This document shows positions 37,909-53,757 of a stretch of DNA of 64,000 nt, piece by piece. The stretch is from Syntrophorhabdaceae bacterium (GTDB taxonomy: Bacteria; Desulfobacterota; Syntrophorhabdia; Syntrophorhabdales; Syntrophorhabdaceae): contig OY762209.1 of the NCBI GenBank assembly GCA_963665295.1, forward strand, positions 2,368,001-2,432,000. Reading direction: 5' to 3'. The first letter of the stretch is position 1. Each line of letters starts with the position of its first letter. The notes beneath the pieces were generated by a model that worked only from the letters and a program-made list of their open reading frames with translations, was not told the DNA's origin and did no database searches. Position numbers and translations under genes: made by a program.

Positions 37909-38102
37909 GCAGGAAGGTGCGGGGAATCAACCGGATACGGGGGGAATTACGATTTTGCTTGCAAGTTTTCCTTTCGTGATGAGACTATGTATGCAGGTAA
38001 TGCGGCGCCCGCGGGCGCCGGAACGGGCTATGGGGCCCGTATTTCAGACTGTTCTCGGTGGTGAGGCGTTCTCGCTGCCATGCACGAGCGGGGGGATATG
38101 AT

Positions 38103-38879
38103 ATGAATGATCTGTTGGACTATCCGTTAATTGTTTTCGTGATCTTTTTCTTCGTACTATGGTTTTCGGCTTTGATCGGGGCGTTTCTTTTCAGGGGACG
38201 GGGGAAGAAGGAAGAAAAAAGTGAGGATATCGGCATTGTCCTGGCTGCCACACTGACCCTCCTTGGCCTCATCATCGGATTCAGCTTTTCCATGGCCACA
38301 AACCGATACGATCAGCGGAAGAACTACGAGGAGGCCGAGGCCAACGCAATCGGCACGGAATATGTGCGGGCGGACCTCCTGCCTGCCGCGGACGGCGAAA
38401 AGGTGCGGACCCTCCTTGGGAAGTACCTCGACCAGCGGATCTCGTTTTATTCTACCCGCAATAAGAAGCGCCTTGCCGAGATCAATGCCGATACCCTTCG
38501 GTTGCAGGCCGAATTATGGTCCGCGGTCAAGGGCCCTGCCGCGGCGCAGCCGACGCCCATTGTCGCCCTGGTTGTTTCGGGCATGAACGACGTGCTCAAT
38601 TCGCAAGGATATACCCAGGCCTCCTGGTGGAACCGGATACCCCTCGAGGCATGGGTCCTGATGACGGCCATCGCGATCTGCTGCAACCTGTTAATCGGCT
38701 ATAGCGAGCGGGGCGTCAGAGGCGGGCCCATCCTGCTCCTCATCCTGCCGATCGTTGTGTCCATCTCGTTTTCTCTTATCGCGGACATAGACAGCCCGCG
38801 GGGAGGCGTCATTCGCGTGAGCCCGCAAAACATCATAAGCCTCTCCGACTCCCTCCTTGCCCACCAGGCCCCGCGGTAA
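38103..38879 (+). CDS. DUF4239/bestrophin-like membrane protein
   Basis: LLGLIIGFSFSMA..RY..R, EANAIGT, DIDSPRGGVIRV; four TM segments. Confidence 0.75.
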   Translation: MNDLLDYPLIVFVIFFFVLWFSALIGAFLFRGRGKKEEKSEDIGIVLAATLTLLGLIIGFSFSMATNRYDQRKNYEEAEANAIGTEYVRADLLPAADGEKVRTLLGKYLDQRISFYSTRNKKRLAEINADTLRLQAELWSAVKGPAAAQPTPIVALVVSGMNDVLNSQGYTQASWWNRIPLEAWVLMTAIAICCNLLIGYSERGVRGGPILLLILPIVVSISFSLIADIDSPRGGVIRVSPQNIISLSDSLLAHQAPR

Positions 38880-38997
38880 CGCGCCGCCCGCAGGACTGTT
38901 TCTTGATATACTTTGGAAAGCATATTACAGTATTATCAGGCCACCGGGCTGCGTGTGCCCGTTTATATGATCGTTCTCTTCATGGGAGGATGGGCGG

Positions 38998-40341
38998 ATG
39001 GGGCGTAACAAGATAAGGGAATTGCCGTTGAGGGCAATCATCATCCCAATCCTCGTGGTTCTCGTTCTCTTGCTCGGAGTGAGCTTCTTCTACATCAAAC
39101 CGTTTCCGCCCGGATCCCTGGTCATGGCCACGGGCATGAAAGGCGGGGCCTTTGCCGTTTTTGGCGAGCGTTACAGACAGATACTGGCCCGCGACAAGAT
39201 CAGCGTCGAATTGCGCCCGTCGTCGGGGGCAGTGGAGAACCTGCGGTTCCTGAAAGATAAAGCCCGGGGCGTTGACGCGGGTTTCGTCCAGGGAGGCATA
39301 GCGAAGGTCGAGGAAACGGCGGACCTCGTTTCTCTCGGCAACCTGACCTACACGCCCCTCTGGGTGTTTTACCGGGGAAATGCGACCCTTGACGATCTGT
39401 CCGATCTCCACGGAAAGAGGATCGCCATCGGCCCCGAGGGGAGCGGCATACGACAGTTCGCCCTTGACCTCTTGAAGACCGCGAACGTAACCGGGCCGCC
39501 CACGGTCTTTCATGAGCTTTCTTACGAGGCTGCCGATAAGGCGATAAAGGAAGGGAGCCTCGATGTGGTCATGGCTTTCGGCGCGGCGGATAACCGGTTT
39601 GTGGTGAGCCTGTTGAACGCGAAGGACCTCAAACTGATGAACTTTGTCCAGGCCGAGGCGTACACAAGGAGGTTTCCGGACCTTGCCCACGTGATCTTGC
39701 CCATGGGCGTCCTTAATCCCTCGAAAAGAGTCCCTTCTTCGGATACCCACCTTCTGTCTCCGAGGGTGGACCTCATTGTGCGCAAGAACCTGCATCCGGC
39801 TCTGGCCTATCTCCTTCTCAAGGCCTCGGTGGAGATTCACGGCGGCGCCGGATGGGTCCATAAGGCGGGGGAGTTCCCGTCCCTCACCAAGCAGGATTTT
39901 GTGATCAGCGACCAGGCCCGGCGGTTTTACAAATCGGGCGGGTCCTTCCTCTATGATTATCTGCCCTTCTGGGCCGCCACATTCGTCGACCGTATGACAC
40001 TGGTGCTGGTCCCCCTTGGCGTGGTCCTCATACCGTTGATCGGGATCATGCCATGGATATATACGTGGCGGAACCGGTCGAAATATTACCGCTGGTACAA
40101 GAAGTTGAGGAGCATCGAGAGGGAGGCGACCCTTTGCACGGAACAGGAAAAGGTGAGGCGCTTGCAGGCCGAGCTCGACGGGATCGAGGAAGCCGTGGGC
40201 AGGATTCGCGTATCCATTGTCTTCTTCGATGAACTTTTCATTTTGAAGGAGCACATACATATGGTCCGCCGTCATCTTTCCCATGCCTTCCGTGCGGCGC
40301 CGGAGGGGTCCGACGACAAGGGCGGCAAAAAGCAGGCATGA
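38998..40341 (+). CDS. TAXI-family solute-binding protein with membrane anchors
   Basis: MATG..GG, SSGAVENL, GFVQGG, GKRIAIGPEGSG; C-terminal TM and coiled tail. Confidence 0.85.
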   Translation: MGRNKIRELPLRAIIIPILVVLVLLLGVSFFYIKPFPPGSLVMATGMKGGAFAVFGERYRQILARDKISVELRPSSGAVENLRFLKDKARGVDAGFVQGGIAKVEETADLVSLGNLTYTPLWVFYRGNATLDDLSDLHGKRIAIGPEGSGIRQFALDLLKTANVTGPPTVFHELSYEAADKAIKEGSLDVVMAFGAADNRFVVSLLNAKDLKLMNFVQAEAYTRRFPDLAHVILPMGVLNPSKRVPSSDTHLLSPRVDLIVRKNLHPALAYLLLKASVEIHGGAGWVHKAGEFPSLTKQDFVISDQARRFYKSGGSFLYDYLPFWAATFVDRMTLVLVPLGVVLIPLIGIMPWIYTWRNRSKYYRWYKKLRSIEREATLCTEQEKVRRLQAELDGIEEAVGRIRVSIVFFDELFILKEHIHMVRRHLSHAFRAAPEGSDDKGGKKQA

Positions 40342-42811: not shown

Positions 42812-44467
42812 ATGGCTTTGCACAGTCTGGCAGGTAAACCGGTTCCCGGAGAGATGCTCGTCAATATTCCGCGCCTCGTGAGCGCATACTATACGGAGGG
42901 GCCGGACGTCTCGGTAAAGTCCCAGATGATCGAATTCGGCACCTCGGGGCACAGGGGAAGCTCTTTCGCGAAAAGCTTCAACGAAGCCCATATTCTTGCC
43001 GTGTCCCAGGCGGTCTGTGATTACCGGTCCATGAGGAAGATAACAGGTCCCCTTTTTCTCGGCATGGACACCCATGCCCTCTCGGAACCGAGCCACATCA
43101 CCACTGTGGAGGTCCTTGCGGCGAACGGAGTTGTCACCATGGTCGCCAAAGACCTGAATTATACCCCCACGCCGGTCATCTCCCATGCGATCCTCGTCCA
43201 TAACAGGGGGAAGGTGTCCGGTCTGGCGGACGGTATTGTAATTACGCCGTCCCATAACCCGCCGGAGGACGGCGGATTCAAGTACAACCCGCCCCACGGC
43301 GGGCCTGCCGACGTGGACGTCACCGGTTGGATAGAGGCCAGGGCAAACGAGCTCCTTTCCCACGGGAACAAGGGGGTGAGAAGGCTGTATCTCAGGGACG
43401 CCCTTTCGTCGGGGATGGTCCGTGAGTACGACTACATGGGGCCTTACGTGGACGACCTCAAAAATATTGTCGATATGGAAGCCATAAAGGCTTCAGGGGT
43501 TAGGATCGGGGTAGACCCCATGGGCGGGGCATCGCTCCCCTACTGGGAGCCCATTTTGGAGAAGTACGGTATCGACCTCAACGTGGTAAACCACGAGGTG
43601 GACCCCGCCTTCCGTTTCATGACCGTGGATAAGGACGGGAAGGTGAGGATGGACTGCTCGTCGCCCTGCGCAATGGCCCGCCTCGTGACCCTGAAGGATG
43701 ATTACGATATCGCCTTCGGCAACGACCCGGACTCCGACCGGCACGGAATAGTCGCGAAGAGCACGGGCCTCCTGAACCCCAACCACTACCTCTCCGTGGC
43801 AATCTGGTACCTCTTCCAGCACAGGCCGGGCTGGAAAGCGAGCGCCGCGGTAGGCAAGACGCTGGTGAGCAGCAGCATGATCGACAGGATCGCAGCCGGC
43901 CTGAAGAGAAGACTCTCGGAGGTGCCCGTAGGGTTCAAGTGGTTCGTGGACGGCCTGATCGACGGGAGCTACGGGTTCGGAGGTGAAGAAAGCGCGGGGG
44001 CGTCCTTCCTCCGGAATGACGGAACAGTATGGACCACGGACAAGGACGGGATCATTATGGACCTCCTGGCTGCGGAAATCACCGCAAAGACGGGAGAAGA
44101 CCCGGGTATCCACTACGAGGCCCTTGCCGAGGTATTCGGAAACCCCGTATATGAACGTATCGATGCCCCTGCAACGCCGGAGCAGAAGGCGGTCCTCAAG
44201 AAACTTTCTCCCGACAGGGTGAAGACTTCCACTCTCGGAGGGGAAGAGATAAAGGCGAAACTCACCGAGGCGCCGGGAAACGGGGCACCTATTGGCGGCC
44301 TCAAGGTGGTGACTCAGAACGGATGGTTCGCCGCCCGTCCTTCCGGGACCGAAAATATCTATAAGGTTTATAGCGAGAGTTTTTTAGGCAAGGTCCATCT
44401 CCTCCGTCTGCAGGAAGAGGCGATGGAGATGATAAACAGGGTCTTCGAAGAGGCGGGGGTCCGTTAA
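42812..44467 (+). CDS. pgm: Phosphoglucomutase (alpha-D-glucose-1,6-bisphosphate-dependent)
   Basis: [33 protein letters not shown]. Confidence 0.97.
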
Positions 44468-44567
44468 GGCATGTGGGCAGGTATTGCCTGCACGGTTAAA
44501 CACACACATAAAGAGTGCGGGTCCGGCTTTGACCGCACGGGAAATCTACTTTTAAAGAGGAGGGTAT

Positions 44568-45041
44568 ATGCTGAAGATAGACGCGCGTGATGTTTTGCAG
44601 TTCGCCATCCGCATAGAGGAAGACGGGGAAATGTTTTATTCCAGGGCAGCCTTTACAGCGGACGACAAGAACGTGGCCGACCTGTTCAATGAGCTTGCCG
44701 CTGAAGAGGTACGGCACAAACTGGCGTTTGAGGACCTCCTTTCCCGGGCAAAGGAGATTGCGCCTCCCGAGAGTTATCCGGGTGAGTATATCGGTTACCT
44801 GAGGGACTACATAGACGGCAAGATCGTTTTTTCCAGGTCGAAGAAGACGGAATTGGAGAATGTACACGACGTGGCCGCGGCCCTTGATTTCGCTATCGGG
44901 AGGGAAGCTGATTCCATTACGTATTATCAGGAACTCAGGGCCTATGTGTCGCCCGGTGAACGGCCACCCATAGAGAAGATCATCAATGAAGAACGGACGC
45001 ACCTTGAAAAGCTCTCCGGGCTGAGAAAGAATTACCCCTAG
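44568..45041 (+). CDS. Rubrerythrin/ferritin-like di-iron protein
   Basis: AIRIEEDG..FY, EEVRH, AIGRE, EERTH. Confidence 0.9.
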   Translation: MLKIDARDVLQFAIRIEEDGEMFYSRAAFTADDKNVADLFNELAAEEVRHKLAFEDLLSRAKEIAPPESYPGEYIGYLRDYIDGKIVFSRSKKTELENVHDVAAALDFAIGREADSITYYQELRAYVSPGERPPIEKIINEERTHLEKLSGLRKNYP

Positions 45042-45052
45042 CCTTTGCCGGT

Positions 45053-46210
45053 TCAGTTGGAGATGCGGCTTCTTTTCCCGAGCGCGATGTACTCGGGCTC
45101 CATGTTGGTATTGAGGCCGTAGCGGGCCGTCAGGGCCTCCCATTCCGGTCTTTCCATAATCGCGGTAAGGGCGAGGTTCAGGGGCCGCCTCAGGGGACTT
45201 CCCTTGGGAAAGGCGAAGGCGCACCGTTGCGGCTTGAATTCCGTGGTATGGACATGGAACGGTTTTTCCGTCTCCTTGGCCGCGTAGTAGTGGAGGGGAA
45301 GCTCGTCGATGAAAAAACCGTCGATCTTGTTCGCTTTCAAGGCCCGAAGCGCGTCTATCTCGGAGTTGAAGACCGTATATTTGCCTCCCATCTTCCGGAC
45401 CAGCGAGTACTGAAGGGTGCCCGCCAGAACTCCGAGGTGAAGGCTCCGGAGCTTGTTTGTATCATAGACCTGAATCTGCTGTCGCTCGGTAAGGAGGGTG
45501 GACGCGAGGGAGGCGGTGAAGGCGCTGAAGGCGAGGGCGGACAAGAGTATCCAGACAAGGCCGATAATCCTTGCCGGCAAGGATTTGAGGGCCACGTCGA
45601 AACACGCGCCCGCGGCGAGGGTGGAGCCTACCCAGTATGCCCCGGTGCCTATGCCCTTAAAGGGGCGGCCGTCAAAATGGTCGGGGTTCAGGTCCCGCTC
45701 GATGCGCCACAAGATAAACCCGAGGGCAAAGAGCAAGGCGACAAAGGCGAGGATCGTCTTGATTATATCCCAGGAGAAGAATATCTTCACCACCCTGAGC
45801 CAGGGGTAAGGGTCCCGTCCCTCCGGGACCGCCACGGCCAGTCGCGTGGAGCCGATGGCGGTAGAGAAATCGAAGAGACGGAGCCGGTCCGCCGTCTCAA
45901 AGAGGGCCGCAATGGAAAGGTCGATCGTCCCCGCCTGAAGGGCGTTCTGGAGCCCCTTGAACGTCATTTCCTTCAGTTCGTAGTCCAGCTGCAAATCGGC
46001 TGCGAGATAACGCCACAGGTCAACGGCGAACCCGGTCCACTGGCCCCTTTCGTTCTTCATGGTGATGGGCGGGTCGTTGACGACCCCTACTATGAGCTTC
46101 CGATGGGGCAGGGGACCCTGCGGTTCCGCCATGGCGGGCGTGGACGTGAAAAAGGCCGGGAACGATATGAGAAAGACGATAATCAGCAGTCCGGAGATTC
46201 TTGTTCGCAT
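45053..46210 (-). CDS. Prokaryotic glutamate-receptor-like ligand-gated channel (paralog 2)
   Basis: Signal - S1 (DPPITMK, GFAVDLW) - M1 - WRIER..N..HF - pore loop - M3 (FTASLASTL) - S2 (FAFPKGSPLR). Confidence 0.8.
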   Translation of the reverse strand: MRTRISGLLIIVFLISFPAFFTSTPAMAEPQGPLPHRKLIVGVVNDPPITMKNERGQWTGFAVDLWRYLAADLQLDYELKEMTFKGLQNALQAGTIDLSIAALFETADRLRLFDFSTAIGSTRLAVAVPEGRDPYPWLRVVKIFFSWDIIKTILAFVALLFALGFILWRIERDLNPDHFDGRPFKGIGTGAYWVGSTLAAGACFDVALKSLPARIIGLVWILLSALAFSAFTASLASTLLTERQQIQVYDTNKLRSLHLGVLAGTLQYSLVRKMGGKYTVFNSEIDALRALKANKIDGFFIDELPLHYYAAKETEKPFHVHTTEFKPQRCAFAFPKGSPLRRPLNLALTAIMERPEWEALTARYGLNTNMEPEYIALGKRSRISN

Positions 46211-46212
46211 GT

Positions 46213-47385
46213 CTATATCCCCTTCTTCCTGATGGGCTTTAAATCAGGGGTAAGACCGTAACGGGCGGCAAGGGTTTCCCAGGCGGGGCTTTCCATGAAC
46301 GCCATGAGAGACGTATTCACGTATTCCCTCAGGGGGCTGTTCGCGGGGAAGGCGAAGCCGAATCGCATCTTCTTGAGGGCAGTAAGGCGGACGGATATCT
46401 TCTTCCGGTATCTCAGTTCCTCATAATGCAAGAGCCGGTCGCTGCTCAAAAAACCGTCGATCTTGTTTGCGAGCAACGCCTGGATGCCGTCATCCGTCTT
46501 TTCGAAGAGGGTGTAGTTGCCCCCCAGTTTTTCCAGGATGGATGCCTGGGTGGTGCCCGTGACGGCCCCCGCGTGAATTCTCCTCAGGGTGCTCGTATCA
46601 AAGGCATAGGTCGTCGCCTGACGGCGCGCGATAAGGGTGGATGCAATGGAGGCGGTGAGGGCCCCGAAAGCGACCGCTCCCACGAGGATCCACAAGAGGC
46701 CCATAATCCTCCCTGGAGTGGTCTTGAGGCTGACCCCGGTGCAGATGCCGGAGACGAGGGTGGAGCCTACCCAGTATACGCCCGTGGCGATGCCCTTCAG
46801 GGGGTGTCCGCCGAAATGGTCCGGGTTCTGCTTCCTTTCGCTCATCCAGAAGATGAACCCCGCGAAAATGAGGATGAAAAGGACAACGACCGCGATTTCG
46901 ACAAGGCTCCAGGAGAAGAAGACCTTTATGGCCGCGAGGAAGGGGTGGACATCCTTTTCCGCAGGCACCGCCACCGCGAGGTGCGAGACGCCGATGAAGC
47001 TGGAAAAGTCGAGAAACCGTTGCCGGTCTATCGTTTCGTAAAGAGGGGCAACCGTAAGGTCCGCCGCGCCTGTGCGGAGGGCGTTCTCGACTTCGCTGAA
47101 ACGCATCTCCCTGAGTTCATATTCTACGCCCAGGTCCTTCGCGATGTGACGCCATAAGTCTACACTGAAGCCGCTCCATTCGCCGTTTGCGGCCTTAATT
47201 ACCATGGGAGGGTCGTCAACAACAACGGCGATGAGTTTTTTGTGAACCGGGAAGGGGGACGTGACCGCGTCGAGGCGTGAAACGAGACCCTGGAAAAGGG
47301 TAAAAAGGGCAAACATGACTATGGCAAGAAGCACTCTGCCCGGAAAAGCGTGTTTTTCATTTCCGTCCATCATCTTTCCTGTCAT
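46213..47385 (-). CDS. Prokaryotic glutamate-receptor-like ligand-gated channel (paralog 1)
   Basis: Same architecture: DPPMVIK, GFSVDLW, WMSERKQNPDHF, LTASIASTL, FAFPANSPLR. Confidence 0.8.
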   Translation of the reverse strand: MTGKMMDGNEKHAFPGRVLLAIVMFALFTLFQGLVSRLDAVTSPFPVHKKLIAVVVDDPPMVIKAANGEWSGFSVDLWRHIAKDLGVEYELREMRFSEVENALRTGAADLTVAPLYETIDRQRFLDFSSFIGVSHLAVAVPAEKDVHPFLAAIKVFFSWSLVEIAVVVLFILIFAGFIFWMSERKQNPDHFGGHPLKGIATGVYWVGSTLVSGICTGVSLKTTPGRIMGLLWILVGAVAFGALTASIASTLIARRQATTYAFDTSTLRRIHAGAVTGTTQASILEKLGGNYTLFEKTDDGIQALLANKIDGFLSSDRLLHYEELRYRKKISVRLTALKKMRFGFAFPANSPLREYVNTSLMAFMESPAWETLAARYGLTPDLKPIRKKGI

Positions 47386-47482: not shown

Positions 47483-47941
47483 TCAGCAGACCTCGAGGGT
47501 GCATCGCCGGACGTTGGCCACGATCCGCCTCAACACCTTGAGGGTTGTCGCTTCATCGCGATCAGGGACGCCGTCAAGCAACTCGTCGAGATGCCTTATG
47601 ACGACCGGCGTGAGTGCCTCCCTGACTTTGTGCCCCCTTTCCGTAAGAAAGATACGAAAGATCCTTTTATCCGAACTATCGGCCCGCCGTTCAATGTGGC
47701 CGTGTTTTTCGAGAAGGTTGAGGATCCTCGTCATGTTGTGACGGTCTTTCAGCATCCGCTCGCCAAGCTGGGTCTGATTCATCCCTTCCTCCAGGCCCAG
47801 ACGGGCCAGGACGCCGAACTGCTCCGGCGTGACGTCATAACCGGCTTGTTTGAACCTCCTTAAGAGCAGTGTCGTTCCCTCGGTCTGAACCCGGTAGGCC
47901 CAGTGAAGGAGAAGCTCCTCAATCGGATAGAGTTCCGCCAT
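47483..47941 (-). CDS. MarR family transcriptional regulator
   Basis: VTPEQFGVL, TRILNLLEKHG, DKRIFRIFLTERG; SD AGGAGG before ATG 47941. Confidence 0.93.
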   Translation of the reverse strand: MAELYPIEELLLHWAYRVQTEGTTLLLRRFKQAGYDVTPEQFGVLARLGLEEGMNQTQLGERMLKDRHNMTRILNLLEKHGHIERRADSSDKRIFRIFLTERGHKVREALTPVVIRHLDELLDGVPDRDEATTLKVLRRIVANVRRCTLEVC

Positions 47942-49373
47942 TCTTTCCTCCTTCTGTGAGTCCATCCGCTTTTGCCACCCAGCCCCCGCCCATGGACTTA
48001 TAAAGGTTTACGAGGGAGCGGAAAAGGGTATCCTGCGTCTGCGTATAGGCAAGCTCGGCATTGAAGAGACTCCTCTCCGCGTCGAGGACCTCGAGGTAAC
48101 TGGTGTAGCCGTTCTCGTAGCGTAGGCTTGCGAGACTCGCATAGCTGGTGAGGGCTTCCACCCGCTGTTTCTGGATGACGAGTTGCTCCCGCGATTTGCG
48201 CTGGTCGATGAGAGCGTCATCCACCTCCCGGAATGCCTGCTGGATTACCTGCTGGTACCTGACAAGGTTCTGGTCCGTCACCGCTTCCGCTGCTTGCACC
48301 TGTCCCGCGATGGCCCCTGCGGTAAATACGGGCATCGTGGCAGGCACCACGTAATTCCACATTTTGGCGGGTCCCAGGAAGAGGTTCGAAAGGTCCGTAC
48401 TCTCCACGCCGAAGGAACCGGTGAGGGTGACAGAGGGGAAATAGAGGGCCTTCGCCACACCGATTCGTGCGTTGGCCGCTATGAGGTTCTGCTCGGCCTG
48501 TCGCAAATCGGGCCGCCTGTCGAGGAGTCCGGAGGGCAAACCTGACGGCACCGTGGGAAGAGTGAGGTCATCAAGACGCTTGCCCCGCGGTATGGGGCCG
48601 GGATTACGGCCGAGGAGTACACTCAAGACGTTTTCCTGCTGGGTGATAAGCTTCTGGACCAAGGGAATCGTGGCAAGGGCGAGTTGGTATTCGGATTCCA
48701 CCTGGCGTAGCTCCAACTCTGAGATCAGGCCCCGGTCGAAGCGGAGCTTGAAGAGTTCAAAGGAATACTCACGGCTCTTCGCGGTCCGTTCGGCGATCTC
48801 CAACTGCTTGTCCAAGTGGCACAGGTCCACATAAGACGTCGCCACCGCCGCCACCACCGTGAGGACCACGGCCCTTCGTCCTTCCTCGGTGCTGAGAAGG
48901 TCGGCCCTAGCAGCCTCCGTGGAACGGCGAATACGCCCCCATATGTCGATCTCCCAGCTCGCGGCGAGGAAACCCTGAAAGTCATTATAGGGGTTATCCG
49001 CCGCATAGGACCAGGGAGGGTTGACATAACGGCTTACCGCCTTCCTCTGTGCGACGCCTGCCGCCGCCACCTGGGGAAAGAGGGCGGCCCTCGTTGTGCC
49101 GTATCGTCCCATGAATTCATCGACCCTTGCCGCGGCGATGCGGAGATCCTTGTTTTCCTTAAGTGCCGAGGCGATAAGTTCGTTAAGGACGGGGTCGCCG
49201 AACTGTTCCCACCAGGCCGTGTCCGCAAGGTCCTTCGCCTCGGGCTCCGTGAGACGCCATGTATCCGGTGCGTCGATGGAAGGCCGCCGGTAATCGGGTC
49301 CGATAGCACAGCCGCAAAAGGAGAGGACGAGAAGCAGGGCGATAATCGCCCTCTGCGGGTTCATCCTATGCAT
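47919..49373 (-). CDS. RND efflux outer-membrane lipoprotein (OprM/NodT family)
   Basis: Lipobox FCGC, WWEQFGDP, WEIDIWGR, RRPDL, SYLEVLDAER, LYKSMGGGW. Confidence 0.95.
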   Translation of the reverse strand: MHRMNPQRAIIALLLVLSFCGCAIGPDYRRPSIDAPDTWRLTEPEAKDLADTAWWEQFGDPVLNELIASALKENKDLRIAAARVDEFMGRYGTTRAALFPQVAAAGVAQRKAVSRYVNPPWSYAADNPYNDFQGFLAASWEIDIWGRIRRSTEAARADLLSTEEGRRAVVLTVVAAVATSYVDLCHLDKQLEIAERTAKSREYSFELFKLRFDRGLISELELRQVESEYQLALATIPLVQKLITQQENVLSVLLGRNPGPIPRGKRLDDLTLPTVPSGLPSGLLDRRPDLRQAEQNLIAANARIGVAKALYFPSVTLTGSFGVESTDLSNLFLGPAKMWNYVVPATMPVFTAGAIAGQVQAAEAVTDQNLVRYQQVIQQAFREVDDALIDQRKSREQLVIQKQRVEALTSYASLASLRYENGYTSYLEVLDAERSLFNAELAYTQTQDTLFRSLVNLYKSMGGGWVAKADGLTEGGKNGGTLSD

Positions 49374-52300
49374 GGTCGTCCTCCTTCCTCGCAACAGGGG
49401 GCGCCTTCTTTTTCTTTCGCCGACCCGCAACCTTCTCTACTGCATAGAAAGTGACGGGGATGAGGAAGATCGCAATTACCGACGCCGCCGCGGTCCCTCC
49501 CATTACCGCAGTCCCCATGGTCTGATGGGCGTTTGCTCCCGCCCCGGTCGAAATCGCAAGGGGGAGCACCCCGAGGAGAAAGGCAAAGGACGTCATGAGG
49601 ATGGGTCTCAGACGAAGCTGGGCCCCTTCGAGGGCGGCATCGATGAGCCCCTTCCCCTGCTGGTGCCTTGTTTTTGCAAACTCCACGATGAGGATAGCGT
49701 TCTTTGCCGCCAACCCGATGAGGACGATGAGGGCGATCTGGGCATACACGTTGTTTTCCATGCCCCGCAACCACATGGCGGCGAAGGCGCCGAAAACGGC
49801 AACAGGCGTGCCGAGAAGCACGCTGAGGGGCAGGGACCAGCTCTCATAGAGAGCCGCAAGGATAAGAAAGACGCAGAACAAGGAAAAGGCGAAGATGGCC
49901 GATGCGGGGAGACCTTCCCGGGCCTTTTTTTCCTGGAAGCTCATGCCGATATAATCGAGGCCAATGTCGGAGGGCATGGTCTGTTTGTACACCTCTTCCA
50001 GGGCGTTCATCACCTGTCCCGAACTGTACCCCCGCTTGCCGGTGGCGTTGATCTGGGCGGAACGATAGAGGTTGTAACGCATGGTGAATTCGGGACCGGG
50101 CCGTGACTCCACGGTGGTGAGCGCCGAAAGCGGCACCGGGTCGCCCCTGTCGTTATTCACATAGAACCGTCGTATATTCTCGGCCTTTGCCCGGTAGGTC
50201 CCTTCCGCCTGCACATAGACCTGCCACTGGCGGCCGAACCGGTTGAAGTAATTTACGAAGTAGCCTCCCATGAAGGTTTGCAGGGTCTGGTAGACCTCCC
50301 TGAGATCGATGCCCTGCTTGATAACCTTGTCGCGGTCGACGTTCACGAAGAGTTGAGGCACGGCAGGAAGAAACGTGGTGATTACGTTCTCGAGCTCCGG
50401 CCTCTTGCGCGCGGCCTCGATGAATTTGTTCACGTTCTCCGCGAGAAAACTGATGTCTTTGCCTGCCCGGTCCTGGAGGACGACCTGGGCGCCTCCGGCC
50501 AGTCCTATGCCCTGGATCGGGGGCGGGGGAAAGACAAAGGAAACGCCTTCGGGAAATTTCCGCAACTCCCGTCGCAGGTGGTCCATAATCGCCTGATACT
50601 TTTCCTCGGGCCTCTTTCGGTCCTGCCAGCCTTTCAGGGTCACAAAAGCGAAGCCGCTGTAAGTGTTCTGGGCAATGCTCATGAGGCTCAGACCTGAAAT
50701 GGTCTGGTAGTGCTCGATCCCCGGCGTTTTGCTCAAGACTTTCTCAACGTTCTTCATGACCTCCGTGGTGCGCTGGAGCGACGCGGCATTGGGAAGGGCC
50801 ATGTTTATGTAAAAATATCCGACGTCCTCGTTAGGAAGGAAACTCGCGGGGAGTCCCTTGCCGAGAATGCCGGAAAGGAGCGCGATAAAGCCCAGGAAGA
50901 GAAGGCTGAGAACGCTCCTCCGGATCAACGACCGGCACACGCTGACGTAGCCCTTGGAAGCCCTGTTGAATACCCGGTTGAACCAGGTAAAGAACGCTCC
51001 AAGGGGTCCGTGTGTTTTTCCCGGTCTGAGGAGAAGGGCGCAGAGGGCCGGGCTTAGGGTCAGGGCGTTAAAGGCTGAAATGATGACCGAGATCGCGATG
51101 GTCACCGCAAACTGCTGATAGAGCCTGCCGGTAATGCCCGGGATGAAGATGGTGGGGATAAAGACGGCAGCGAGAATAAGGGCGATCGCCATAACAGGGC
51201 CGGAAACCTCCTTCATGGCCTTGAGTGACGCCTCCTTTGGCGACAGTCCTTCCTCGATGTGGCGCTCCACCGCTTCAACCACGATGATGGCGTCGTCCAC
51301 CACGAGGCCGATGGCAAGGACCAGGCCGAAAAGGGAAAGGGTGTTGATGGAAAAGCCCAGAAGCGGAAAGACGGCGAAGGTACCTATGAGCGAAATGGGG
51401 ACGGCCAACGCGGGAATGAGGGTTGCCCTCCAGCCCTGAAGGAAGAGAAAGACCACGAGGATTACGAGGGCCAGGGCCTCCAGGAGGGTCTTCATGATCT
51501 CGTGGATACCTTCATTGATGGACCGGGTCGTGTCGAGGGTGATGGTATATTCCAGATCGGCGGGAAACCGTTTGCTTGCCTCTTCGAGCACCTTCTTTAC
51601 CCCTGCCACGGTGGCGAGGGCATTGGACCCGGGCAACTGGTAAACGCCCAGCATGGCGGCGGGCCTTCCATCAACACGGGCATTCACATTGTACGTTTGG
51701 GCTCCGAGTTCGATACGGGCCACGTCTTTCAGCCGGACAATCGATCCATCGGGGCTTGCCCGGACCACGATGGACTCGAAATCTTCGAGTGTCGAAAGGC
51801 GGCCCTTTGCCCGGACCGTATAGGTGAATTCCTGCTTCGGAGGCGCGGGTTCCGCCCCGATCTGTCCCGCGGGGTTGACCGTGTTCTGTTTCTCGACAGC
51901 CTTCACAAGGTCCGGGACGGTGAGTCCCAGTTTGCCCAGCGTATCCGGGTTCACCCATATCCGCATCGCGTAGTCTCCCGCGCCGAACAGGTTGACCTGG
52001 GCGACACCCGGCGTTCGGAGCAACTGGTCGATGAGGTTGATATTCGCATAGTTTCCCAGGAATGTAGAGTCGTGGGTGCCTTTCGGCGAGGAAAGTCCCA
52101 GGATCATGAGAGGCGACGACCTCGATTTCTGGATGTTCACCCCGTAATTGCGAACATCGATGGGGAGTTGGGATTGTGAAAGGGCCTGACGTATCTGGGT
52201 GAAGATGAGGTCGGTATTGGGATCGGTCTTGACGTCGAAATTGACGAAGACGCGCATGCTCCCGTTGCTCGCATTGACCGAGTACATGTAGTTCATGTTG

Positions 52301-52518
52301 TCTACGCCGCTCAGCTTCTGCTCCATGGGCGTGGCGACCGACTGCTCCACGGTTTCCGCGTCCGCGCCCGTGTAGGTTGTCCAGATCTGGACCTCAGGGG
52401 GGACGATCTCGGGGAATTGCGCCACCGGTAACTGAAACATCGCCACCAGTCCGAGGACAATGAACATGATGGAGATAACCATCGCAACGATGGGGCGGTT
52501 TATGAAGAACCTTGACAT
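49366..52518 (-). CDS. RND efflux permease (AcrB/HAE1 family)
   Basis: MSRFFINRP, GLVVDDAIIVVE, AKNAILIVEFA, RLRPILMTS. Confidence 0.97.
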   Translation of the reverse strand: MSRFFINRPIVAMVISIMFIVLGLVAMFQLPVAQFPEIVPPEVQIWTTYTGADAETVEQSVATPMEQKLSGVDNMNYMYSVNASNGSMRVFVNFDVKTDPNTDLIFTQIRQALSQSQLPIDVRNYGVNIQKSRSSPLMILGLSSPKGTHDSTFLGNYANINLIDQLLRTPGVAQVNLFGAGDYAMRIWVNPDTLGKLGLTVPDLVKAVEKQNTVNPAGQIGAEPAPPKQEFTYTVRAKGRLSTLEDFESIVVRASPDGSIVRLKDVARIELGAQTYNVNARVDGRPAAMLGVYQLPGSNALATVAGVKKVLEEASKRFPADLEYTITLDTTRSINEGIHEIMKTLLEALALVILVVFLFLQGWRATLIPALAVPISLIGTFAVFPLLGFSINTLSLFGLVLAIGLVVDDAIIVVEAVERHIEEGLSPKEASLKAMKEVSGPVMAIALILAAVFIPTIFIPGITGRLYQQFAVTIAISVIISAFNALTLSPALCALLLRPGKTHGPLGAFFTWFNRVFNRASKGYVSVCRSLIRRSVLSLLFLGFIALLSGILGKGLPASFLPNEDVGYFYINMALPNAASLQRTTEVMKNVEKVLSKTPGIEHYQTISGLSLMSIAQNTYSGFAFVTLKGWQDRKRPEEKYQAIMDHLRRELRKFPEGVSFVFPPPPIQGIGLAGGAQVVLQDRAGKDISFLAENVNKFIEAARKRPELENVITTFLPAVPQLFVNVDRDKVIKQGIDLREVYQTLQTFMGGYFVNYFNRFGRQWQVYVQAEGTYRAKAENIRRFYVNNDRGDPVPLSALTTVESRPGPEFTMRYNLYRSAQINATGKRGYSSGQVMNALEEVYKQTMPSDIGLDYIGMSFQEKKAREGLPASAIFAFSLFCVFLILAALYESWSLPLSVLLGTPVAVFGAFAAMWLRGMENNVYAQIALIVLIGLAAKNAILIVEFAKTRHQQGKGLIDAALEGAQLRLRPILMTSFAFLLGVLPLAISTGAGANAHQTMGTAVMGGTAAASVIAIFLIPVTFYAVEKVAGRRKKKKAPPVARKEDDHA

Positions 52519-52533
52519 GCGGCGAGCCCTCCC

Positions 52534-53757
52534 CTATCCCTTCTGGGGTTTGGTCCGAGACCCTGCTCCCGGCACGGGGCCGCCTCCGCCGGGCGTCCGG
52601 GGAGTCTTCTGTTGTCCGTCAGCCTGCTTGGCAACAAAGGGTTTTACGGTTACCACGGTCCCTTCCTTCACCTTCTGGACTCCCTCGGCAATGACCCGTT
52701 CGCCCCGTTTGAGGCCGCTCTCTATGACCCAAAAGTCATCGACCCGCTCCGCAACCTCGACAGGCCGGATATTGACCTTGTTATCCGGCGCTACGACAGC
52801 TACCTGGAACCCTCCCTGAAGCTCCGTCACCGCCCGCTGCGGCACGAGGAAGGCACCTTTCTTGATCGCTGTCTCTGCAATGACCCGGGCGAATTGACCC
52901 GGCCGGACTACGTTTCCGGGATTGGGGAAGAGGGCGGCGACTTTGATGGTTCCTGTCCTCACGTCCACCTGCCGGTCCGCAAAGGCGAAGCTTCCCTTGT
53001 GGGGATGAAGGCGGCCGTCGGCAAGGATCAACTGAAGGGGCAATCTCTGACCCCGTTCACCGCCGGACTGAACATACCGCAGATATTCCGGTTCACTCAT
53101 GGATATATAGACCTTGATGGGGTTCACAGTCGACACGGTGGTCAGTTCCTCTACGGAGCCGGTACCTACCAGGTTGCCGATCTGGGCTTTGGCGATGCCC
53201 GCGATACCGGCTATGGGTGAAGTGATCTTCGTGAATTCCACGTCAACCTTGGCCTTGTCGACTACCGCCTGCGCTTCTACCACGGCGGCCTTGGCCGCCT
53301 GCTCGGTGCCGACCGCGTCATCATAGTCTTTGAGGCTGATGGCCCTCCGCTGCACCAGGGGTTTGATGCGCTCCAGGTTCGCCTTGGCAATTTCCCAGCG
53401 GGCCTGCTGCTGGCCGAGCTGTCCGTTGGCCTTTTCCAGGGCGGCCACGAAGGTTCGGGGGTCGATCTTGAAGAGGACCTGACCCTTCTTGACGAAATCG
53501 CCCTCCTTATAATCCTGCTCAGTCAGATAACCCTGGACCTGGGCGCGGATGACGGCATTCACCAGGCCGTCGGTGGAAGCTGTCCATTCCGAATAAACAG
53601 GAACATCCTTTATCACGATGTCCGTCACGGCGACAATGGGCGGCTGCGCGATTTCCTTGGTCCGGCCGTTCTTGCAGCCGGGCAGGCACAGGGCTGCCGC
53701 ACATGTCATGATCATGCCTATACAAAAGATACCGGTTGCCTTTTGTTTCCAGGCCAT
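52534..53757 (-). CDS. RND efflux periplasmic adaptor (MFP) lipoprotein
   Basis: Lipobox LPGC, IRAQVQG, ITSPIAG, VPQRAV. Confidence 0.95.
   Translation of the reverse strand: MAWKQKATGIFCIGMIMTCAAALCLPGCKNGRTKEIAQPPIVAVTDIVIKDVPVYSEWTASTDGLVNAVIRAQVQGYLTEQDYKEGDFVKKGQVLFKIDPRTFVAALEKANGQLGQQQARWEIAKANLERIKPLVQRRAISLKDYDDAVGTEQAAKAAVVEAQAVVDKAKVDVEFTKITSPIAGIAGIAKAQIGNLVGTGSVEELTTVSTVNPIKVYISMSEPEYLRYVQSGGERGQRLPLQLILADGRLHPHKGSFAFADRQVDVRTGTIKVAALFPNPGNVVRPGQFARVIAETAIKKGAFLVPQRAVTELQGGFQVAVVAPDNKVNIRPVEVAERVDDFWVIESGLKRGERVIAEGVQKVKEGTVVTVKPFVAKQADGQQKTPRTPGGGGPVPGAGSRTKPQKG

Follow-up and report, generated by a model that had tools for sequence, protein, structure and literature searches.

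We analysed a 64,000-nucleotide stretch (the window) of contig OY762209.1 from a Syntrophorhabdaceae bacterium (assembly GCA_963665295.1, positions 2,368,001 to 2,432,000 of the forward strand) and concentrated on two adjacent minus-strand genes, here called A and B, which encode paralogous subunits of the type of GluR0, a prokaryotic ionotropic glutamate receptor (iGluR). A sequence-only reading of the locus had described two paralogs 2 nt apart, each consisting of a signal, a first ligand-binding lobe (S1), a membrane helix (M1), a pore loop (P), a gate helix (M3) and a second ligand-binding lobe (S2). The open reading frames, the Pfam matches and an AlphaFold2 (AF2) model of A agreed with that layout, the signal being putative, and the gate segments (LTASIASTL and FTASLASTL) and the pore loops of A and B (YWVGSTLVSGICTGVSLK and YWVGSTLAAGACFDVALK) read as stated there. 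The features of the two genes are as follows.

46213 to 47385, minus strand: gene A (P0001), 390 amino acids, a GluR0-type subunit with the layout signal-S1-M1-P-M3-S2
47266 to 47385, minus strand: putative signal peptide of A, residues 1-40, assigned by inspection, with a helix at 16-36 in the model
46957 to 47238, minus strand: S1 lobe of A, about residues 50-143, with D58, F96, Y116 and R121
46837 to 46911, minus strand: M1 helix of A, residues 159-183 in the AF2 model
46735 to 46803, minus strand: pore helix of A (195-212) and its filter S212-G213-I214-C215-T216-G217, with the Cys codon at 46741-46743
46612 to 46719, minus strand: M3 gate helix of A, residues 223-258, including LTASIASTL and aligned with SYTANLAAF of AMPA receptors
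46252 to 46602, minus strand: S2 lobe of A, with the S315 codon at 46441-46443 and the codon of the A-specific R317 at 46435-46437
46211 to 46226, minus strand: A/B junction, a 2-nt gap from the A stop codon to the B ATG, with a Shine-Dalgarno-like stretch for B
45053 to 46210, minus strand: gene B (P0002), 385 amino acids, the paralogous subunit
45596 to 45613, minus strand: filter of B, A200-G201-A202-C203-F204-D205, with the Cys codon at 45602-45604
45305 to 45307, minus strand: D302 of B, the amino-anchoring Asp of S2, which is kept; its S1 counterparts are R109 and F104

A and B were 48% identical over 367 amino acids and were the sole two full-length copies in this 5.5-Mb single-contig genome. 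In both, S1 and S2 lobes surround two transmembrane helices and a re-entrant pore loop, Pfam found SBP_bac_3 split around Lig_chan, and a hydrophobic N-terminal helix with an AxA-like end could be recognized by eye. The chains, of 385-390 amino acids, stop after S2, and the amino-terminal domain (ATD) and fourth membrane helix (M4) of eukaryotic iGluRs and plant glutamate receptor-like proteins are absent. The AF2 model of A, made from a 100-sequence alignment (predicted local distance difference test 92.0, predicted template modelling score 0.80), ran in the order S1, pre-M1, M1, pore helix, M3, S2; with this model as query, Foldseek ranked chains spanning the ligand-binding domain (LBD) and transmembrane domain (TMD) of AMPA receptors first (E 1.4e-18), and in a structure comparison of the helical domain Z was about 10, which is modest. 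Pfam gave no match of Ion_trans_2 (PF07885) to A or B, and neither was among the genome's five matches to that family. The true start of A is probably Met6 (47370), since an AGGA word resembling a Shine-Dalgarno sequence stands 6 nt before it; the database entry has 385 amino acids. The Shine-Dalgarno-like stretch for B is purine-rich and sits within the final codons of A, an arrangement that makes translational coupling of the two genes probable. A promoter and terminator scan gave 3 and 6 sites, respectively, against 1.2 and 4.6 expected, and yielded nothing usable. Single assembly contigs from runs X1 and X3, which come from two studies (one of which may be the source of the window), spanned the stretch with zero mismatches; because they agree letter for letter, we concluded that it is not an assembly artefact.

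In place of the potassium filter TxGYGD, A carries the word SGICTG and B the word AGACFD. These are two versions of the filter [SA]-G-x-C-x-[GD] of a clade, here called the GxC clade, whose GluR0 relatives have TVGYGD at this place. Conservation of the motif among homologs, on which the sequence-only reading depended, was borne out: the Cys occurred in 39 of 39 matches of B at E <= 2e-68, with the complete G-x-C in 38, and was absent from the 6 weaker matches. When 1.84 billion representatives were searched with a profile and the best 150 of 22,620 matches examined, all 11 channel matches of at least 340 bits carried GxC; below 285 bits it occurred in three fragments only, the remainder being mostly TVGYGD, and the profile scores placed proteins with TVGYGD nearest to the clade. 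A scan of species-representative genomes, made with a pattern that ends before the filter motif, found 30 loci, and GxC was read in 29 of these; the remaining one runs into the end of its contig and appears to match locus L075, which carries GxC. A first, quick tree included the pore columns, and both later trees, from which these columns had been removed, recovered the clade with support of 100/97 (65 rows) and 99/97 (46 rows). Among 50 clade proteins the mean identity was 69.4% over pore helix and filter, as compared with 46.8% over S1 and 40.1% over S2. Because the figure for the pore matches the 70.0% found in 50 relatives with the potassium filter, we concluded that the GxC pore is not decaying and is under purifying selection; the unconserved pore loops expected of drifting pseudo-channels were not found.

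Most clade members come from Syntrophorhabdales and from anaerobic Desulfobacterota related to them. By record title, the majority belong to Syntrophorhabdales, Syntrophaceae, Syntrophobacteraceae or unnamed deltaproteobacteria, and there is a single record each from Nitrospirota and Spirochaetota. Its distribution is patchy, with members in 26 of 96 genomes of the order and in 4 of 401 in a phylum sample; a further 18 genomes of that sample gave weaker matches, and the 16 distinct readable pores were all of the GYGD type. A metagenome scan with an A-type alignment found 1 locus among 306 pattern matches, a viral scan found no relatives among 70 pattern matches, a plasmid collection held no close relative among the 5 records listed per query (identity 24-35%), and a search of the ESM Atlas returned only generic SBP_bac_3/Lig_chan clusters. 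Databases label the clade proteins as solute-binding proteins of ABC transporters. We rejected that label: the solute-binding domain is split by M1-P-M3, there are no conserved neighbours, and the NCBIfam solute-binding protein scores of A and B all fall far under the cut-offs. Across 31 loci and the window there was no conserved permease, ATPase or other neighbour, and because no neighbouring gene family recurred in more than 4 loci, we concluded that the channel stands alone.

How the GxC filter is to be laid over that of a potassium channel depends on the register chosen. In the gapless register, S212 corresponds to T75, G213 to V76 and C215 to Y78 (KcsA numbering); hhalign chose it when all 99 members were used, and it places the Cys near the Cys of AMPA receptors, one residue off when counted from M3. 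In kainate receptors, G592 has been mapped to G77 and E594 to D80 (PMC2217257). The shifted register, in which V214 corresponds to V76, C215 to G77, F216 to Y78 and G217 to G79, needs one insertion at 211-213 and loses P83; its profile score before gap costs was 31.1, as compared with 13.7 for the gapless one, hhalign chose it for the 43 members of ancestral type, and phmmer did likewise against KcsA G77C. We slightly favour the shifted register, which would put the Cys at G77 and Phe or Tyr 216 at Y78. The sequence-only reading had the Cys at about the filter Tyr position, which holds in the gapless register, but the equal or better register gives G77 instead. In either register the residue at the G77 position is not Gly. 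D80, P83 and W67 are lost or changed relative to the potassium filter. Mutants at the glycine equivalent to G77 were described as non-selective in BK, GIRK2 and Shaker, but KcsA G77A as K+-selective (bioRxiv 10.1101/2023.04.17.537168); loss of K+ selectivity in the GxC proteins is therefore likely but not certain.

Within the clade the filter varies by type. In the motif counts by group (A, B and other clade proteins), which are circular for the Cys, as the groups are partly defined by it, most single-gene members read SGVCFG, and Ser212 was present in most. All 14 B-type proteins have Ala in position 212 and Asp in position 217, and all 13 A-type proteins have Thr-Gly at 216-217. In GluA2 and in a placozoan receptor, Ser at the Q/R/N site was reported to reduce both the permeation of Ca2+ and the block by polyamines (PMC12226733). 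The Cys had also been suggested to confer redox or metal sensitivity, and this idea found no support. GluR0 topology has both termini outside (PMC13099474), and the filter exit would therefore be cytoplasmic; the sole other conserved Cys, at position 236 in M3, was kept in 63 of 66 other members but lost in 13 of 13 A-type and 11 of 14 B-type proteins. A disulfide between C215 and C236 was rejected, since C236 is lost in the A/B pair and C215 retained. The simpler inference is that the Cys packs behind the filter.

Tandem pairs arose three times. Among 26 genomes with clade members, 18 held a single gene and 8 a tandem pair (G000, G001 and all six genomes of genus g22), and in the tree without pore columns the origins of the pairs were supported at 100/100 for A and B, 98/93 for the g22 pair and 100/97 for the pair of locus L032, A and B forming sister clades (100/100). 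A and B lie next to each other in the DNA of G000, G001 and L051; six more pairs were inferred from A-type and B-type proteins on equal-sized contigs (4,586; 10,401; 12,596; 103,978; 474,928; and 5,627,377 bp) rather than from the DNA itself. Seen or inferred, the two occur jointly in 9 of 10 lineages, a count confined to proteins whose contigs have room for two genes, and on 8 contigs able to hold both B never occurred without A. Among seven pairs the distances between A proteins and between B proteins were correlated (Pearson 0.96, reached in 6 of 5040 permutations), which speaks for co-inheritance and not for co-assembly. The A/B pair of the window is thus old and co-inherited. The gene pairing whose conservation the sequence-only reading had proposed to check is conserved in the A/B lineages, but not across the clade, in which single genes prevail.

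The two partners differ in their ligand pockets. An Arg in S1 and an Asp in S2 are described as totally conserved in both groups of prokaryotic iGluRs of Ger et al. (PMC2950845). The carboxylate-binding S1 Arg (R121) was kept in 13 of 13 A-type and 14 of 14 B-type proteins, whereas, of the 66 other clade proteins, most of them encoded by single genes, 64 have the amino-anchoring S2 Asp, as do 11 of 14 B-type proteins but none of the 13 A-type proteins. The latter have Asn or Ser in its place (S315 in A) and an invariant Arg317. In the g22 pair all 5 first genes have the Asp and none of the 5 second genes does; in the younger L032 pair both genes keep it. Each of the two old pairs thus has one partner from which the S2 Asp has been lost. 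Position 116 was Phe or Tyr in 55 of 66 other clade proteins, 11 of 13 A-type and 14 of 14 B-type proteins, as compared with Thr or Ser in 106 of 137 relatives with the potassium filter, and it is Ser in PDB entry 2PYY. Position 58 was Asp in 59 of 66 other clade proteins, as against mostly Ala or Ser.

Both features, acidic at 58 and aromatic at 116, are shared by PDB entry 2Q88, titled 'putative ABC transporter amino acid-binding protein', which we take to be EhuB and to whose pocket residues we assign the roles presumed for that protein. This entry was the best PDB match of an EhuB-like protein; its motifs ANEPPF and AGLFMKPER align with NDPPI and AALFETADR. Like A and B, it has an Acid-Pro-Pro-aromatic motif, an aromatic residue five positions before the Arg and an aromatic at the F96 position. 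Unlike them, it is a soluble ABC-transporter protein, and the likeness is limited to the pocket: against TIGR02995 (the EhuB family) the window proteins scored 15.1 and 26.3 bits, the cut-off being 190.9. EhuB binds ectoine by cation-pi contacts (PMC2871039). Glutamate appears a doubtful ligand because Phe or Tyr replaces the amino-binding Thr and an acidic residue precedes the PP motif, as in the ectoine-binding protein; by this analogy the pocket suggests an N-substituted or cyclic amine carboxylate. The g22 pair (L011, L012, L013 and L081) has features of its own: the first gene has Asp at 61 and Arg at 342, and the second lacks the S2 Asp.

From these observations we propose that A and B form a ligand-gated, non-K+-selective cation channel, probably a 2+2 heteromer with unlike sites, and we hold this tentatively, at somewhat below an even chance. 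In this view the two subunits would build a pore-loop channel that has the layout of GluR0, stands by itself and is gated from the periplasm; binding of a small carboxylate-bearing solute would close the S1S2 clamshell and pull the M3 bundle open. Cations would then cross a degenerate filter; because the carbonyl cage of TVGYG is lost, the channel would most likely be non-selective or of low conductance for cations and not a K+ channel. The single-gene ancestor would have been a homotetramer, and after tandem duplication the two co-translated copies may have specialized, B retaining the Arg and Asp anchors and having an Asp in the pore, and A losing the S2 Asp and gaining an Arg. The two unlike sites of a 2+2 heteromer could serve two ligands, or one subunit could be sensing and the other structural. 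A bolder version, which we think doubtful, is that the clade independently repeated two steps taken by animal iGluRs, namely loss of K+ selectivity by way of a new, fixed filter and repeated duplication to give obligate 2+2 heteromers, whose subunits would require different ligands and act as an NMDA-like coincidence detector for solutes other than glutamate. If it were true, syntrophic anaerobes would depolarize in response to a chemical pair, N-substituted amine carboxylates being among the candidate ligands.

Several observations weigh against this proposal. The rank correlation of the A and B distances was only 0.53 (Spearman), and co-inheritance follows from tandem position alone. An A-type protein (P0010) lies on a 192-kb contig on which no B was found, in searches to which fragments below 210 amino acids are invisible. 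Pairs are frameshifted in two g22 genomes (G094 and G095), and a broken pair is present in L051 and also on the 104-kb contig, whose A and B proteins are both truncated; these may be assembly errors or decay. As 18 of the 26 positive genomes hold one gene, the GxC pore would normally be homomeric and work without a partner, and A and B are possibly homomers as well. With respect to the ligand, a search of the genome turned up no importer of the EhuB or OpuAC family, which weakens the idea of an osmolyte; A has Met and not an aromatic at position 61, the aromatic at 116 is missing from the three basal members of the clade, and the first genes of the g22 pair are without the S1 signature, which speaks against an N-substituted or cyclic ligand. 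With respect to the filter, KcsA G77A retained K+ selectivity in liposome flux assays at an about 32-fold lower conductance (bioRxiv 10.1101/2023.04.17.537168).

The homomer question leads to the strongest alternative, which we regard as rather unlikely: A and B might be two independent homotetramers with the same non-K filter and different ligands, the operon widening the range of solutes sensed. Besides the majority of single-gene members and the A without B, two genomes (G031 and G094) hold a pair together with a separate single gene, and divergence of the pockets is expected after any duplication. This alternative leaves unexplained, however, why A and B stay together in 9 of 10 lineages, with B never alone on the 8 sufficient contigs, and why exactly one partner in each of two old, independently formed pairs has lost an Asp that nearly all other members keep; moreover, co-translated tetramer subunits of 48% identity would tend to mix.

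A second alternative concerns the filter, which might be a shifted, degenerate potassium filter (G-V-C-F-G for T-V-G-Y-G) that is still K+-selective at low conductance. The shifted register, with its higher score and its choice by hhalign for the ancestral-type members, retains G79, V76 and the aromatic at 78; 8 of 96 relatives with the potassium filter themselves have Gly at T75; the top Foldseek matches of the TMD model were KcsA position-77 variants, with E of only about 0.01; and KcsA G77A remained selective. We nevertheless consider it quite unlikely, since there is loss or change at D80, P83 and W67 as well, the aromatic is replaced by Thr in A and G79 by Asp in B, the position-77 mutants of three other channels are described as non-selective (bioRxiv 10.1101/2023.04.17.537168), and the genome has five other Ion_trans_2 genes. 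The relatives with Gly at T75 (P0030, P0036, P0037, P0098 and others) are natural counterparts of the KcsA T75G mutant.

It is more improbable still that A and B bind ligand but conduct no ions and serve as membrane-anchored sensors or solute gates, the loop being structural or letting a small neutral or anionic solute pass. The typical filter of the single-gene members is uncharged and hydrophobic, and the literature found holds no conduction data for non-K prokaryotic iGluRs; however, A and B have no cytoplasmic output domain and no conserved partner gene, and the gate residues of M3 are retained. That the genes are drifting pseudo-channels or a sequence artefact is hardly credible, for although some related loci are frameshifted, the Cys is invariant, the pore is 69% identical as against 40-47% in the ligand lobes, and the frames are intact and confirmed in two assemblies.

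Among the closest known systems are GluR0 of Synechocystis (slr1257; LBD PDB 1IIT/1II5) and Group 1 of Ger et al., with which A and B share the signal-S1-M1-P-M2/M3-S2 layout, the lack of ATD and M4, the S1 Arg and the length of the pore loop; the LTASIASTL-like motif of M3 is ordinary among GluR0-type proteins, including those with the potassium filter. They differ in having no TVGYGD, in the remodelling of W67, D80 and P83, in occurring as tandem paralogs, in the aromatic that replaces Thr or Ser at 116 and in the loss of the S2 Asp in A. Group 2 of Ger et al., defined in silico in 2010, comprises ten filter-less proteins of cyanobacteria, Alphaproteobacteria and Vibrionaceae (PMC2950845). 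It includes the Nostoc punctiforme GluR0 homologue, whose LBD (2PYY) was the top single-sequence PDB match (E 7e-15). A and B have the features by which that group is operationally defined, namely iGluR topology and a P region without a recognizable K+ filter; A differs from it in lacking the 'totally conserved' S2 Asp. Six stand-ins from the Group 2 taxa, which are not the ten listed sequences, had unrelated pore loops and fell at four places in the tree, and a joint clade of these with the GxC proteins was rejected (p value of the approximately unbiased test, 8e-77); filter loss is thus recurrent among bacterial iGluRs. The sequence-only reading had called the subfamily undescribed. As a conserved, non-TVGYGD clade, tightly conserved and with its own filter, it apparently is, but filter-less prokaryotic iGluRs as such had been defined already; a literature search on prokaryotic iGluRs that covered few subscription journals found no work on the clade or on Syntrophorhabdus iGluRs, and no heteromeric prokaryotic iGluR.

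AMPA, kainate and NMDA receptors gave the best structural matches to the LBD-TMD, have an M3 that aligns through SYTANLAAF and have a non-K filter, with a Cys in AMPA receptors within one residue of C215; NMDA receptors are heteromers with unlike ligand sites (PMC3149435). A and B differ from all three in lacking ATD, M4 and cytoplasmic tail and share about 19% identity with them, and their filter loop has the length of that of a K channel, one residue longer than that of AMPA receptors (PMC2217257). Because the clade sits among bacterial proteins with the potassium filter, in trees that leave eukaryotic sequences outside, we take the likeness to eukaryotic iGluRs as convergent.

In the literature found, the K+-selective GluR0 is the sole prokaryotic iGluR with measured function, and the passage from a K+ filter to a non-selective iGluR pore, like that from a homomer to a heteromer with split duties, is usually argued from distant eukaryotic comparisons. 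The clade offers a minimal system of 380 residues that contains relatives with the potassium filter, putative single-gene GxC homomers and three independent tandem pairs, so that either question could be addressed by expressing such genes in E. coli. The clade is, besides, a natural experiment on what follows when the conserved glycine of the filter is replaced by another residue. It points to about 100 proteins that are wrongly annotated as ABC solute-binding proteins and gives a hint that energy-limited syntrophs may have solute-triggered ion flux.

Some relatives outside the clade were seen along the way. P0034, P0050 and P0133 form a separate small clade (100/100) of bacterial iGluR-like proteins whose pore loop is two residues shorter (for example MSGCCDK and MSGVGDQ) and which represents another independent filter loss; a further 16 sequences of the motif-count set were neither K-filter nor GxC. 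P0061 (586 amino acids), P0130 (507 amino acids) and L093 (a frame of 602 amino acids) are GluR0-type proteins with the potassium filter and long N-terminal extensions, possibly extra domains.

In the neighbourhood of the pair, four minus-strand genes at 47483-53757 of the window are read as encoding a membrane-fusion protein, an RND-type pump, an outer-membrane efflux protein and a MarR regulator, the last two identified by Pfam. The run shares the strand of gene A and lies 97 nt upstream of it, and the MarR reading frame overlaps the end of the efflux gene by 47 nt. We rejected this MarR-RND efflux operon as a partner of the channel: G001, in which the phosphoglucomutase and ferritin-like genes are in synteny with those of the window, lacks the operon at this position, and it therefore looks like an insertion in the window's lineage. 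In the window these two genes, a phosphoglucomutase and a rubrerythrin/ferritin-like gene (42812-45041, plus strand), converge on B with an 11-nt gap, and their arrangement occurs also in G001 and in none of the other loci compared. Farther away, at 38058-40341 on the plus strand, a gene with a bestrophin-like domain (PF14023) precedes one for an NMT1_3 solute-binding protein with a C-terminal hydrophobic helix and tail, another membrane-anchored, sensor-like protein near the pair.

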